From a virus: a DNA stretch of 57,970 nt. Below, piece by piece: positions 1-57,970 of the stretch. The notes beneath the pieces are model-generated. The model saw only the letters and a list, made by a program, of their open reading frames with translations, did no database searches and was not told the origin of the DNA. Numbering within the stretch: the first letter of the stretch is position 1; each line of letters opens with the position of its first letter. Made by a program: the position numbers and the translations under genes. Where the stretch lies: IMG/VR virus record IMGVR_UViG_3300045988_094645. One strand, written 5' to 3'.

Positions 1-164
1 TATTTATACTAATTCCGAGAACCGGGATAGGACTATAAGTTTCTTGGATAGCAAAGAATTTAGCCCTTTTGAGCTGATCAGTGTCAGAGAAGCCAAGGAA
101 CTCACAAATTTTTACAGTAGAGTTCTTATATCCTTTTGCCTCAACTAGCTTACTAATCTCCATG
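1..164 (-). CDS. partial hypothetical protein (N-terminal ~55 aa; possible HTH-like small regulator); ATG at 164 with AGGAAG RBS
   Basis: rc translation MEISKLVEAKGYKNSTVKICEFLGFSDTDQLKRAKFF... runs to the window edge; SD-like aggaag lies 8 nt upstream. Confidence 0.3.
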
Positions 165-221
165 ATTTTACTTCCTTTCTTACTTTCTATATATATTATA
201 TAATATTTTTATAAAAAAATA

Positions 222-250
222 AAGACTCCCTTAAAAGGGAGTCTTTATTT
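222..250. terminator. bidirectional intrinsic terminator AAAGACTCCC-ttaaaa-GGGAGTCTTT flanked by A/T runs
   Basis: perfect 10-bp stem with T-run after it and A-run before it, between convergent minus genes. Confidence 0.6.
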
Positions 251-767
251 ACTCAAGGCTAATGCCATATCCATCTTGGATAAATGACCCTTCTGGAATA
301 TAGATATTATATTCTGTAGACCAAGAGCCAAACAAAACATTTAGGACGGGATTTTTAAAGCGGACAGTGTTTTCTGTTGCATATGGAGCGTCGGAAGTTT
401 CTTGAATGTAAGTTTTATCTGCTTTAATAGACTTTGAAGTGATGCCTTTATCCGTTTGATATAGGAACGAATAGCAAAGTCCATCTTCTGAACTAAAGTT
501 ATCACTTAGTGCGATAATATCATAGGTTGCGATAGTTTCTGCTGAATAGGTTTCGGGGTTTGCACATTCAATGATGAATACGCATACTACGAGTGATAGA
601 AATGTTAGAAATATAGAGCCAAACATGGAAAAGAGTGAGCATACTATATACTCGATAATGCTGTCACAACCTGCGAGCAAAAAGATGAGCAGCATAATAC
701 AGAAAGCAATAGGTAGAATAATAGGTAGCATTACATTAACCTCCTTTATATATAAATATAATACCAT
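249..767 (-). CDS. putative lipoprotein or membrane protein (signal peptide with lipobox LLAGC, second hydrophobic helix); possible superinfection-exclusion-type moron
   Basis: supplied ORF; N-terminal MLPIILPIAFCIMLLIFLLAGCDS fits a lipoprotein signal peptide. Confidence 0.45.
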   Translation of the reverse strand: MVLYLYIKEVNVMLPIILPIAFCIMLLIFLLAGCDSIIEYIVCSLFSMFGSIFLTFLSLVVCVFIIECANPETYSAETIATYDIIALSDNFSSEDGLCYSFLYQTDKGITSKSIKADKTYIQETSDAPYATENTVRFKNPVLNVLFGSWSTEYNIYIPEGSFIQDGYGISLE

Positions 768-904
768 ATAAAATATACAATTTCAGATGCGGGAGGGCAT
801 ACAACGAATCGTCATAATTTCTCACGGATGCGGGAAAATTTTAGGCAAGAAAATTGCCAGTCCGCAGTTGTTATATTGTTTATTTTTTTAGAAAAAAGTT
901 TAAC

Positions 905-950
905 AAATTTTAGGACAAAGCAGAAAAATTATGGTATAATAAAAGTGAAA
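905..950 (+). promoter_or_regulatory. sigma-70-type promoter with extended -10 (TGgTATAAT) driving the RHH gene; divergent region holds GATGCGGGA direct repeats at 793-801 and 830-838
   Basis: ttatggtataat sits ~25 nt upstream of the ATG at 971. Confidence 0.45.
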
Positions 951-970
951 TATAGTAGAGAGGTGATAAT

Positions 971-1114
971 ATGAATTATTCGACTGTTTCTGTTAGATTA
1001 ACAGAGGAAGAAAAAAAGACTTTAGAAGAGTTTGCGAAGGATAGAGATTTAACTATGTCGCAAGTAATTAGAAAAGCAGTAAAAGAATATATAGAAAACC
1101 ATTCGAACGACTAA
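971..1114 (+). CDS. ribbon-helix-helix (CopG/Arc-like) DNA-binding protein, 47 aa
   Basis: MNYSTVSVRLTEEEKKTLEEFAKDRDLTMSQVIRKAVKEYIENHSND; RHH beta-strand SVRLTEEE followed by two helices; RBS gagaggtga. Confidence 0.5.
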   Translation: MNYSTVSVRLTEEEKKTLEEFAKDRDLTMSQVIRKAVKEYIENHSND

Positions 1115-1130
1115 AGGAGACGAAAACAAA

Positions 1131-55016: not shown

Positions 55017-55656
55017 AACTCAATTCAATAGCTTTTAATTCATCTATTGAATTAGCTCCAAATATCTAGGTTTTATATTCTTGCATTAAGTGGTATTTTG
55101 GATATACCGCATTAGAAATAGCTAAACTTAGAGCGGATAATTGCTCTAAAGTCCATGGTACACACTCTTCGTGTCGAGCGTGCCACTCAAGCGTAGGATT
55201 TTCTACTTCAGCAGCTACAGCCACCTAGAATTGATTGAGATTTAAGCTAATCTCAGATTGGTCCTCCTACGTAATTCCATATTCTTTTCCATCGACCCAA
55301 GTTAACGGGTGGGTAGCAAGATACTCTGCGAATAGTTTCTTGTTTTCCTCTTGTTTATCATATTTTGCCTAATCTAAATCAGCGATGAAAGTACCATCTT
55401 CTTGATTATACTTTGAATAGTTAGGAATGACGTTTGATGGAATTGTTTCCAACTCTAATACTGTAACAGCATTAGGTTGATTTAATACATCGGCTTTGAC
55501 TAGAGTGTAATGAGTATCACTATCTGAGCCGATAACCCCAGTTCCCTCTTCTTCCTCGCAGGCAACGACAATACCATTTGAGGATTGCAGTTTAATGTAA
55601 CGTGCTTCTGAAAGAATATCAACTACTATATTCTCTCTATTTAATAGAATATACAT
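54994..55656 (-). CDS. hypothetical protein (~220 aa; five in-frame TAGs)
   Basis: supplied ORF 55369-55656 ends at a TAG; continued frame reads ...FIADLD[TAG]AKYDKQEENKKLFAEYLATHPLTWVDGKEYGIT[TAG]EDQSEISLNLNQF[TAG]VAVAAEVENPTLEWHARHEECVPW... to TAA; its ATG overlaps the RT stop (TAATG). Confidence 0.35.
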
Positions 55657-56873
55657 TACTTTATTTCAACTCCTTTGAATAATGAACGAAAATAATTGTC
55701 CATGTCCTGAATTATATAAAAGCAAGTTCCTTTAGAAATATGCGCCCTCCAGCCCTAATAAGATTTCTAAACTTCTTCAGTTGAAATTTTATTATCTAAC
55801 CATAAAGCCTACATTTTCTTTAGTTTTCTGCGCTGATGAGCTACTTTTTTCTTGAAAGGAAGTTGTATTATATGATTAGTTTCTGTGAGATGAAAATTCC
55901 ACTTTAAATATTTAAAAGGAGCGTGGCGTTCGCCATCTGCGTGAATAGGAGAAATTCTAGTGATAGTAGTTTTCTTCTTATTCATCTTTAATCCTTGTTT
56001 ATTTAAGCGAATTTCTATTTGTTTCTCACATTCGGCCAAGTATTTACTGTCATTATGGAGCAAGTATAAATCATCCATATAACGACCATAATACTTAATA
56101 TGTAACTCTTCTTTTATGAAGTGGTCAATTTCGTTCAATGCTAGCAATGCGAATAATTGTGACGTTTGACTTCCTAATCCCAGGCTCTTTCTTTCATATT
56201 CATAATACTTACGACCAGGCTAGAAATGAGTAACATTAACTCTTTCATACTTGTGTCGCTTACTTGTGTAATATATTTTACCGGGTATAGGCGAAGTGTC
56301 TTTTGTTAGCTTAAAAGAAAATGTATCTATCAAGTAACAACATAACTAATAAACAAGTTTATCTTTTATTAGCCGTTTAGCTGCTTTCTTTAAAGATTCA
56401 TGGTCAATAGAATCAAAATATTTCTGTATATCAATTCTTAATCCATAAAAATCTTTTCCTAACCCATACTCTTTATGAGCCTATTGGAGATGTTTCTTAA
56501 CTCTTTCCAGAGCGAAGTCTATTCCCTTTCCTTTTAGGGTTGCACAATTATCATAGATAAATCTAGGAGTTAATTCTGGTAGCAAAACTTGTTCACATAA
56601 CGCATTTTGTACCAGTCTGTCGTTGATATGACACGCTCTTATATCTCTTGGTTTGCCTCGTTCGATTATCGAAAAACAACTAAACACAAGCTGTTCGTAT
56701 TCACACGCTCGCAGGTCAGCTTCTGTTTTTAAAATTGTTTCTATCCTATTCTCTTCAAAATTAATTGTACTATCTTTCCATCGAACGTTTCGACATACCT
56801 TATAAGACGCCTCATACATAGCGTCAAAACTACAAAAACGCTCGAAAGCAGTATCTTGTTTTATTTCAGACAT
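55656..56873 (-). CDS. diversity-generating retroelement reverse transcriptase (~404 aa if all TAGs are read through; first in-frame TAG after 355 codons) with six in-frame TAGs
   Basis: supplied ORFs 56481-56873 and 55809-56147 share one frame, and the 333-nt gap holds only TAG stops. Translation gives DGR-RT motifs: ...GKPRDIRACHINDRLVQNALCEQVLLPEL...FIYDNCATLKGKGIDFA..., LRIDIQKYFDSIDHESL, GLGSQTSQLFALALNEIDHFI, YGRYMDDLYLL (YMDD). Confidence 0.8.
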
Positions 56874-57181
56874 ACTTTCTCCTTATCATGTAGCTATAGT
56901 GGTAGCTACTCGAGCTCCACGTCTACAGTCTTACTTTATCCACTTTTTCAGTGAAATGGTTAAGTTCTCCTTAGATGAAAAGGCAGATCTACCTATAGTA
57001 TATTATTCGATAGTTGTAGAGCAAAGCTCTTTAATGGTCTCTCAATCTCTTCCCCACATAAAGTGAGTGCAATCCAGAGTAAACCTTAATTAGATGGATA
57101 ATAATATACTCCGGGGTACTATTTAGGCGTTGCTCGTTTGCGCTGCTCCGCAGCTTAACTCGCAACATGATAGCTCCATCT

Positions 57182-57290
57182 AATCCGGCGCGAGCCCGTT
57201 GCTGTTGTTGTAGTTGTTGTTGTTCGCAGATCCATCGTTGTTGACATTGCAAACGTTGTTCGAGTTGTTGTAGTTACTGGACCGAAAGAT
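57182..57290 (-). repeat. DGR template repeat (TR), AAC-codon rich on the minus strand
   Basis: 57182-57247 matches 57905-57970 at ~49 of 66 positions; 16 of 17 mismatches fall where this copy has T on the plus strand, meaning A on the minus/RT-sense strand, the DGR adenine-mutagenesis signature; right boundary approximate. Confidence 0.7.
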
Positions 57291-57470
57291 ACAGAACTTA
57301 ACCGTAGAAAAATATTATCGACCTCTCCTATATCTCTTAGGAGCTGAATATCTATGCTCTGTTATAAGTTTATCTCTATTTTTTCTATCTTGGATTGACT
57401 CTTTTACTCTCTTTGTCAATCTAGCTAGATGTTCAAAAGAGCGTCTTTTCTTTTTGCTGTTCTGAGCATA

Positions 57471-57809
57471 CTAATAAATACATAGGTCGATTTGTCGAAA
57501 TATACTATCACAATATTCTAGTGCTTTATTATGATAGTCATTTCTCTTTGCAAGGGTTTCTTTGTCTTTCAAGTTTATCTTACATGCCTCATAACAGCAA
57601 GCATGTAAGCCCTTTCCGCACTTAATTATATCGTACCCGAACGCTTGAAGAGGTTGACCCTCTCCAAGCAGTCCAGGCTTACAAATTTGTTTTCCATCCT
57701 TATCATATTCTCTAGGACGAGTTAAGACTAAAATATATCCCATTAAGTCGCGTGCTTTATAAAGACAATCTTGCTTTGATATGTGTCTATCTTTTACTTT
57801 TACAGACAT
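57471..57809 (-). CDS. candidate accessory variability determinant (Avd)-like small protein (112 aa), assigned by position between VR and TR
   Basis: supplied ORF; the canonical order target-VR/avd/TR/RT is reproduced on the minus strand; no family match could be confirmed by eye. Confidence 0.35.
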   Translation of the reverse strand: MSVKVKDRHISKQDCLYKARDLMGYILVLTRPREYDKDGKQICKPGLLGEGQPLQAFGYDIIKCGKGLHACCYEACKINLKDKETLAKRNDYHNKALEYCDSIFRQIDLCIY

Positions 57810-57904
57810 TTAAAATCTCCCTCACTTGAATATATAAAATTTTAGTTGGACAATTTAATCTTAACTGTCCCGAATTGTTATTTTATTGTGTTATCCGATA
57901 ACGA

Positions 57905-57970
57905 AAGCCGGCGCGAGCCCGTTGCTGTCGTAGTAGCCGTCGGAGGTCGCAGACCCCTCGGCGCGGACAA
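57905..57970 (-). repeat. DGR variable repeat (VR), partial and truncated by the window end; 3' end carries a GC-rich IMH-like element (GCCGGCGCGAGCCCG) and a GTTATC-C-GATAAC palindrome just downstream (57890-57902)
   Basis: see TR evidence; VR has C/G/A where TR has T (plus strand); the target gene must lie on the minus strand beyond 57970. Confidence 0.65.

Follow-up and report, generated by a model that had tools for sequence, protein, structure and literature searches.

Amber codons read as glutamine in a human-gut phage with SPbeta/EF1-like genes

The IMG/VR virus record IMGVR_UViG_3300045988_094645, a stretch of 57,970 bp with 36% GC that was analyzed as a whole and is called the window below, raises the question of how its amber codon is read. 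Under the standard bacterial code (translation table 11) the window breaks up into many short open reading frames (ORFs), and a preliminary description of this DNA had proposed that TAG is reassigned across the whole element, most likely to glutamine (Gln). Judged by sequence comparison, the window is ~40% of the genome of a tailed phage of human-gut Bacillota of roughly 148 kb. In the window, TAG is reassigned to Gln. The reassignment is very probably the work of a phage-encoded Gln-type amber suppressor tRNA, which would turn UAG into Gln in a host that presumably uses the standard code.

TAG as a sense codon for glutamine

The two codes differ in the share of the window that they leave as coding. 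In a greedy stop-to-stop cover, table 11 gave 117 non-overlapping ORFs (median of 93 aa, cover of 0.678), whereas reading through TAG gave 64 ORFs (median of 189 aa, cover of 0.944); control read-throughs of TGA and TAA in the same procedure reached 0.742 and 0.837, respectively. A gene caller built for this analysis, which scores ORFs by codon usage with an identical procedure for both codes, returned 55 genes with TAG as sense (density 0.836, total score 4303) and 93 genes under table 11 (density 0.46, total score 2214). Reading amber as sense is thus favored by density (0.84–0.94 vs. 0.46–0.68), by score and by gene length, as the comparison of tables 15 and 11 suggested in the preliminary description was expected to show.

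Within the 55 called genes, TAG occurs in frame 336 times and TAA and TGA do not occur at all, whereas the other two frames of the same genes hold hundreds each of TAG, TAA and TGA. Downstream of the TAGs, relatives of the phage keep coding sequence up to a common TAA or TGA. Conserved genes therefore stay open across TAG and stop only at TAA or TGA, as in genetic code 15. The many short ORFs of table 11 could also be left by decayed or fragmented pseudogenes of a standard-code element, or by an assembly artefact. The probability of such an origin is close to negligible, since the frames are interrupted by TAG alone and never by TAA or TGA, are under purifying selection across relatives and recur in the same sequence, at 99.9% identity, in many independent assemblies.

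Both strands are affected, as had been stated, with 309 of the in-frame TAGs on the plus strand and 27 on the minus strand. TAG is present in 35 of the 55 called genes; of the 31 that reach 150 aa or more, 24 have it. Most genes are therefore split in an ORF track made under the standard code, and the earlier wording that nearly every gene is fragmented was somewhat overstated.

The genes singled out as examples in the preliminary description carry in-frame TAGs at the places where it had put them. The reverse transcriptase of a diversity-generating retroelement (DGR; 55656–56873, minus strand; Pfam RVT_1, 5.8e-16) holds 6 TAGs; the RVT_1 match covers aa 73–323 and spans the TAGs at aa 131, 176 and 218, and TAG/Gln codon swaps are seen in this gene against the relative L017. 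The tape measure gene (32576–41275, plus strand; PhageMin_Tail, 2.1e-27) has 2,899 codons, among them 103 TAGs, and ends in TAA, and the complete PhageMin_Tail profile (1–201 of 201) lies on aa 186–393, across 6 TAGs. In-frame TAGs also occur in the YonF-like large terminase gene terL (18447–20192, plus strand; 14 TAGs; recognized by PHROGs and homolog alignments), the portal gene (20569–22197, plus strand; 11 TAGs; phrog_2739, 2.4e-80) and an HNH_3/NUMOD4 homing endonuclease gene recognized by Pfam (3669–4283, minus strand; 1 TAG). A Pfam search of the window proteins did not recognize TerL or the portal, both of which were recognized by PHROGs.

The identity of the amino acid cannot be taken from the nearest homologs. 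In the 120 nearest homologs of TerL, Gln stands at all 14 TAG columns, and this observation was rejected as evidence because it is circular: the genes of recoded relatives themselves contain TAG, which the source pipelines translated as Gln. Because of this circularity, three tests that do not assume Gln were used.

The first test relied on cultured phages with the standard code, collected by tblastn (Enterococcus phage H1, Geobacillus virus E3 and Alicyclobacillus phage KKP_3916). In 27 protein alignments, 150 TAGs of the window are paired with a residue, and the commonest partner is Gln (39 TAGs, 26%); next come Asn and Glu, with 15 each, and Lys, with 14. For comparison, true Gln codons of the window pair with Gln in 21% of cases in the same alignments, and the other residues do so in 2–7.5%. 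With substitution frequencies taken from these alignments, the maximum-likelihood identity of TAG is Gln, 51.6 nats (log-likelihood units) ahead of Asn. Several variable TAG columns hold K, E or N in homologs, which would also be seen if TAG encoded another residue (Glu, Lys, Tyr, Leu, Ser, Trp or pyrrolysine); the lead of Gln in likelihood speaks against this explanation.

The second test was a codon alignment with recoded relatives, namely L001 (~86% nucleotide identity) and L005 and L007 (roughly 75% and lower). Opposite the TAGs of the window, L001 has TAG at 49 positions, CAA at 16, CAG at 6 and other codons at 6. Conservation of TAG or Gln thus amounts to 92% in L001, which is comparable to the conservation of other residues. 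In the recoded relatives, Gln codons of the window pair with TAG in 16.7% of cases, and every other residue does so in at most 1%. Since CAA, the preferred partner, is two substitutions away from TAG, mutational proximity is not the explanation; an amino acid other than Gln is likewise disfavored, as TAG interchanges with CAA and CAG and not with its single-step neighbors AAG, GAG, TAT, TTG, TCG and TGG.

The third test concerned conserved Gln sites. Among 52 distant full-length TerL homologs, the residue at the TAG of aa 66 is Gln in 51 and that at the TAG of aa 381 is Gln in 47. In a FolD-like methylene-tetrahydrofolate dehydrogenase/cyclohydrolase (14976–15800, minus strand; 7 TAGs; THF_DHG_CYH_C, 8.9e-35), the TAG of aa 50 (15651–15653, minus strand) aligns with the Q of ‘ASQ(T/V)YV’ in the bacterial structures 3p2o and 4a5o. 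The match of this protein to THF_DHG_CYH (E 5.7e-07, 30.2 bits) lies under the Pfam curated cut-off of 32.8. The earlier claim that this TAG sits at the invariant Gln of the PASQIYV motif holds for its position in bacterial FolD; bacteria conserve this residue, yet it is not invariant, because human MTHFD1 has L at the matching position. The reading of TAG as Gln is borne out by all three tests.

Suppressor tRNA and the tRNA cluster

A scan of the window with ARAGORN and Rfam gave no tRNA and no RNA match, and there was no tRNA in the first 30 kb past its 3′ end or in the first 10 kb past its 5′ end. The rest of the genome was walked on IMG/VR and metagenome contigs, and the fetched loci, mapped onto IMG/VR contig 3300045988_093451, give a circle of ~147.9 kb. 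A phage without a suppressor was considered and dropped once a tRNA with a CUA anticodon was found further out, where the preliminary description had advised looking.

Contig 3300045988_093451 is 99.4% identical to window positions 1–10226, indels aside, and carries a tRNA cluster whose start lies ~10 kb outside window position 1. This cluster (L152 10978–20670, L153 and L154; ~10–27 kb beyond position 1) contains ~31 tRNA genes, a tmRNA (L152 17814–18144) and a ROOL RNA (L153 1206–1801, 350 bits), the latter located between two tRNA-Gln genes. The gene of tRNA(CUA) is single (L154 12782–12856 on the same contig, ~26 kb from the window) and is also present in four relatives; ordinary tRNA-Gln genes number two.

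The tRNA(CUA) folds into a regular cloverleaf. Its anticodon loop reads CU-CUA-AA, U1 and U72 are unpaired, the discriminator base is G73 and the CCA end is encoded in the gene. GlnRS and GatCAB have a weak 1-72 pair, G73 and U35 as identity elements. A weak 1:72 pair combined with G73 is found in 5 of the 30 tabulated tRNAs: two tRNA-Gln, tRNA-Trp, an odd 74-nt tRNA and tRNA(CUA). These features are compatible with charging of tRNA(CUA) with Gln. Its sequence is identical at 62 of 72 positions to the 72-nt tRNA-Sup-CTA found in phAss-1, a phage for which one tRNA-SUP-CTA was typed as Gln by tRNAscan-SE, without a statement as to which of the three copies it was (PMC10607447).

ARAGORN labels the gene ‘tRNA-Pyl’, a label given to any CUA anticodon, and pyrrolysine or another residue at TAG could be suspected on this ground. 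The ordinary cloverleaf and the homology to the suppressor of phAss-1, whose type was assigned to Gln by its authors, argue otherwise. No pyl genes were seen among the ORFs inspected on the genome walk, in which no search aimed at pyl was made. Together with the substitution and interchange data given above, this makes a residue other than Gln very improbable. Both another amino acid and pseudogene decay are effectively excluded.

The odd 74-nt tRNA (L152 11135–11208; L148 19009–19082) combines a Gln-like acceptor end (U1-A72, G73) with the lack of a long variable arm; ARAGORN reads its anticodon as UGA (Ser) here, whereas in relatives it reads CAA (Leu). A further tRNA-like element at L153 2068–2187, found by Rfam alone (50.9 bits), bears a 47-nt insertion in the anticodon arm; its examination as a possible hidden suppressor yielded no anticodon. 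A sub-threshold twister-P1-like match adjoins tRNA-Ser in the cluster.

Uneven use of TAG and the proposed mechanism

The rightward module (16.2–54.5 kb) and the leftward genes below 14.7 kb differ in their use of TAG. In the former, TAG makes up 51% of Gln-type codons (24.0 per 1000 codons); in the latter it makes up 18% (6.9 per 1000 codons), being 3.5x rarer. Both modules carry TAG, and the earlier view that early and late genes are affected alike is right only to this extent, given the difference in density. Outside the window, TAGs are present in the genes of a lysin (12), a RecJ-like protein (13), a RuvC-like protein (9) and NrdD (2), and none occurs in the sequenced part of the gene of PolIII-alpha, in the topoisomerase genes or in the genes on either side of the suppressor tRNA.

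The rightward module itself is not homogeneous. Five of its genes (23479–24168; 24188–25240, capsid-like; 25302–25838; 28983–30377, tube-like; 31935–32465) have no TAG among their 40 Gln-type codons, for which P = 5e-13 at the rate of the module. The ratio of CAG to CAA is 19:21 in these five genes vs. 49:202 in the TAG-containing late genes (P = 4e-4). As CAG is kept in the TAG-free genes and depleted in the TAG-containing ones, TAG has mostly replaced CAG.

One TAG of the leftward genes resembles a stop. The early gene at 12452–12826 (minus strand) has TAG at its natural end (12449–12451), and its orthologs in L001, L198 and L199 end one codon earlier with a standard stop (TAA in L001). The 15 ‘codons’ past this TAG make up a conserved GC-rich hairpin (12405–12451, minus strand; 13-bp stem, ~−37 kcal/mol, no U-tract), which is found in the same form in the relatives and is non-coding in the three of them. 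A simple terminator scan did not flag this hairpin. The TAG at 12449–12451 most likely still acts as a stop, at least until the suppressor appears. Hence, the reassignment is not uniform, because TAG is rarer in the leftward genes, the capsid and tube genes lack it and one TAG is stop-like. Of the original ‘element-wide’ claim, the occurrence of in-frame TAGs across the window stands and the uniformity does not.

Several perfect or near-perfect sigma-70 consensus promoters lie upstream of leftward genes. In the region of 8300–16200, perfect TTGACA-17-TATAAT promoters on the minus strand end at 9655, 9083 and 8316, and a divergent pair of sigma-70-like promoters (16126–16190) separates the leftward and rightward modules. 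In the promoter scan, 36 promoter-like sites were found vs. 24.9 expected.

For these observations the following mechanism is proposed. The phage would infect a host with the standard code. The tRNA(CUA), charged with Gln, would outcompete release factor 1 (RF1) at UAG, and genes with up to 103 TAGs would then be translated in full, terminating at UAA or UGA. Early genes would be read under the code of the host, and TAG-rich genes would become translatable only after the suppressor tRNA accumulates. Such a model fits the distribution of TAG, which accounts for about half of Gln-type codons in the rightward packaging and tail genes and, outside the window, in the lysin gene, is rare in the leftward genes and is missing from those of the most abundant virion proteins.

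Several facts weigh against this mechanism. Early and late genes are not cleanly separated: TAGs occur in FolD, in several of the small leftward genes and in the genes of the RuvC-like and RecJ-like proteins, and the late capsid and tube genes carry none. The tRNA(CUA) gene lies outside the window and was found on the contig of 99.4% identity and on relatives, in a part of the genome beyond that covered on the 99.9%-identical L009–L012. GlnRS was not seen among the inspected ORFs of the remaining genome. A factor directed at RF1, the second element that the preliminary description had advised looking for, did not turn up: a search for the GGQ motif in all fetched loci returned no release factor and no RF2, although a very divergent release factor or an antagonist of RF1 of another kind would escape it. 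The sole leads to the host are phage-sized contigs binned in Oscillospiraceae and Eubacterium metagenome-assembled genomes (MAGs).

The timing step can be carried further and taken as a conditional reassignment, in which UAG is a stop early in infection and Gln after the suppressor accumulates. Recoding would then time or restrain the translation of packaging, tail and lysis genes, and some early genes would end at TAG. The share of TAG among Gln-type codons (0.18 leftward vs. 0.51 rightward), the consensus sigma-70 promoters ahead of the leftward genes, the TAG at 12449–12451 located at the ortholog stop position before a conserved hairpin, and the contrast between the TAG-free genes flanking the suppressor tRNA and the 12 TAGs of the lysin gene all agree with this possibility, and the same model was put forward for other recoded phages (bioRxiv 10.1101/2021.08.26.457843). 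However, TAG is absent from the major capsid and tube genes although these are late, FolD and several leftward genes have conserved sense TAGs, and there is a single example of TAG as a stop. A conditional code of this kind is a serious possibility, to which we give somewhat less than an even chance.

The TAG-free late genes, including those of the capsid-like and tube-like proteins, deviate from the rate of the module and could be explained by a limited efficiency of suppression. TAG would be decoded slowly or leakily as Gln, tolerated in low-copy proteins alone and avoided in the most abundant virion proteins by selection on the speed and yield of translation and not on timing. The retention of CAG in the TAG-free late genes and the presence of a single suppressor tRNA gene vs. 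two ordinary tRNA-Gln genes point in the same direction. Yet multiple copies are also required of the tape measure, portal and tail proteins, whose genes are rich in TAG, and limited efficiency is compatible with the timing model and does not exclude it. We regard this explanation as possible, with the chances rather against it.

Both effects could be united in a graded two-code programme in place of a plain reassignment, in which UAG still ends at least some early genes, is shunned in the virion proteins of the highest copy number and is concentrated in the genes of packaging, tail and lysin. One Gln-type suppressor tRNA, of common descent with that of the phAss-1 lineage, would thereby set the timing and stoichiometry of late protein synthesis. 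This proposal is tentative, and we consider it rather unlikely.

Affiliation of the phage, its other genes and implications

Human-gut metagenome contigs of 100–295 kb contain parts that match the window at 99.9% identity, and for one TAG-free protein of the window 1158 blocks of the assembly collection have an entry; the phage is very common in the human gut. TerL at 94–95% identity is encoded on contigs of 148,971 and 147,780 bp, which are binned into Oscillospiraceae and Eubacterium MAGs. An integrated prophage is not supported, as these contigs are of phage size (148–149 kb) and give no sign of integration. An exact look-up of the first window gene gave no match.

The head and tail genes appear, from protein comparisons, to be related to the group of Enterococcus EF1/H1, Geobacillus E3 and Bacillus SPbeta. 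Orthologs in relatives carry the SPbeta-named Pfam families YonG, YonD, YonB, YomW, YomV and YomU; the precomputed Pfam records (YonG_N, YonD_N, YonB, YomW and YomU_Tube) are on orthologs of 85–97% aa identity, and the local Pfam copy did not report Yon/Yom families on the window proteins. Collinear BLASTP matches to Enterococcus phage H1 agree with the SPbeta/EF1-like order of head and tail genes. The best cultured relatives are large siphoviruses of Enterococcus, Geobacillus, Alicyclobacillus, Brevibacillus and Bacillus, and TerL is 48–50% identical to that of Enterococcus phage H1 and Geobacillus virus E3. The phages of this kin (Enterococcus phages H1, EF1 and VRE9_4, Geobacillus virus E3, Alicyclobacillus phage KKP_3916 and Bacillus SPbeta-type phages) appear to share with the window the collinear genes of the YonG-like protein, TerL, portal, YonD-like protein, capsid, tube and tape measure, and have genomes of 120–142 kb with tRNA genes. 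Unlike the window, they use table 11, have full-length genes annotated and most often have Gln where the window has TAG.

The second point of comparison is the phAss-1 group, gut phages of ~135 kb (133–138) akin to Enterococcus phage EF1, with recoded TerL, portal and tape measure and a tRNA-Sup(CTA) (PMC10607447). The present phage resembles them as a human-gut member of Caudoviricetes (~148 kb here, 133–138 kb there), in the reading of TAG as Gln in TerL, portal, tail genes and a tape measure of about 3,000 aa, in a large tRNA array that includes tRNA-Sup(CTA), in the lack of a dedicated aminoacyl-tRNA synthetase, and in its kinship to Enterococcus phage EF1. Phage phAss-1 and Enterococcus EF1/H1 are among the best matches of TerL, and the suppressor tRNAs are homologous. 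The differences lie in TerL, which is 44% identical, and in the number of suppressor tRNAs (one here vs. two or three there); the present phage carries a DGR, a tmRNA and a ROOL RNA. Members of the proposed Phassvirus share about 80–86% nucleotide identity (PMC10607447). A megablast search with 24 kb of the window against 50,697 INPHARED phage records, OQ749652 included, gave no match. With TerL at 44% identity and no nucleotide match, the phage does not belong to Phassvirus and represents a different genus-level lineage.

Recoding of TAG to Gln with phage suppressor tRNAs was described for crAss-like, Lak and other gut phage clades (bioRxiv 10.1101/2021.08.26.457843), and insertion of Gln at UAG was shown by proteomics for crAss-like phages (PMC9523058). 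Like the code-15 gut phages (crAss-like, Lak, Garnet, Amethyst, Topaz and Agate), the present phage has an AT-rich genome, reads TAG as Gln, encodes a suppressor tRNA, uses TAG heavily in structural and lysis genes and variably in replication genes, and has a predicted standard-code host. It differs from them in its SPbeta/EF1-like morphogenesis module, in the absence of RF2 from the fetched loci by the GGQ-motif search and in its TAG-free major capsid and tube genes. The NCBI taxonomy holds a ‘Caudoviricetes code 15 clade’, and public gene callers already apply code 15 to relatives of this phage. Both TAG recoding in phages and this phage group have thus already been described, and the present phage adds a member.

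The leftward genes include an auxiliary trio of early genes, in which the gene of a PTH2 peptidyl-tRNA hydrolase (13339–13668, minus strand; Pfam PTH2, 1.5e-16) and that of a PARG-like macro-domain protein (13653–14417, minus strand; PARG_cat_microb recorded on orthologs) are TAG-free and stand beside FolD with its 7 TAGs. A PTH2-type hydrolase might be linked to ribosome rescue in a recoding phage. The homing endonuclease gene mentioned above lies in a 1.6 kb insertion (3643–5224), which is missing from the otherwise 99.4%-identical contig L145 and looks like a mobile homing-endonuclease cassette.

The rightward module opens with a sigma-factor-like gene (16220–17266, plus strand; 9 TAGs; phrog_5767), followed by a YonG-like gene (17305–18444, plus strand; 13 TAGs; phrog_3314, 8e-52; PF27269 YonG_N on orthologs), TerL and the portal. 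TerL matches two PHROGs of ‘unknown function’, phrog_15503 (aa 5–218) and phrog_24618 (aa 353–578), each over nearly the whole profile, and both families look like table-11 fragments of recoded terminases. Among the TAG-free genes listed above, all on the plus strand, those at 23479–24168 and 25302–25838 are head genes known from gene calls. They flank the major-capsid-like YonB homolog at 24188–25240 (PF27364 YonB on orthologs). The gene at 28983–30377 encodes a tail tube-like YomU_Tube homolog, identified by the family record on orthologs, and that at 31935–32465 is a late gene from the gene calls. Between the tube gene and a tape-measure chaperone-like gene, a gene at 30435–31871 (plus strand) encodes a 478-aa protein with 25 TAGs (52 per 1000 codons, ~1 codon in 19), for which there was no family match in Pfam or PHROG; of the longer genes, that at 51182–51772 alone is denser in TAG (~56 per 1000 codons). 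The stretch of 41327–54513 (plus strand; gene calls) is taken up by a tail and baseplate/fibre module, whose eight genes hold between 1 and 32 TAGs apiece.

The DGR is complete when 55656–57970 of the window is joined with L009 5489–8144. In addition to the reverse transcriptase gene it comprises a template repeat (TR; ~57182–57284), an accessory-like gene of 164 aa (57315–57809, minus strand) and a variable repeat (VR; 57905–58007), which runs off the end of the window and is situated at the 3′ end of the target gene (545 aa, Big_3/DUF6273). The 19 mismatches between TR and VR all fall at TR adenines.

Outside the window, at L224 12266–20788, ORFs judged by eye resemble genes of NAD salvage and tRNA repair, namely RNA ligase, nicotinamidase, NAMPT, NAD synthetase and Thg1. 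About 6 kb of this region (L224 13205–19197) is missing from contig L233, which is 99.7–99.8% identical over the overlapping parts.

For annotation, the reassignment means that table 11 fragments about two thirds of the genes of this phage, and public family libraries would already hold such fragments, with PHROGs 15503 and 24618 as the N- and C-terminal portions of TerL. A very prevalent gut lineage of ~148 kb with SPbeta/EF1-like architecture joins the code-15 phages, with a suppressor tRNA that has its homolog in the distant phAss-1 lineage. The TAG-free capsid and tube genes and the stop-like TAG are concrete, testable cases that bear on why phages recode. If the graded programme were true, a phage common in gut assemblies could become a tractable natural model of conditional stop-codon reassignment in Bacillota.

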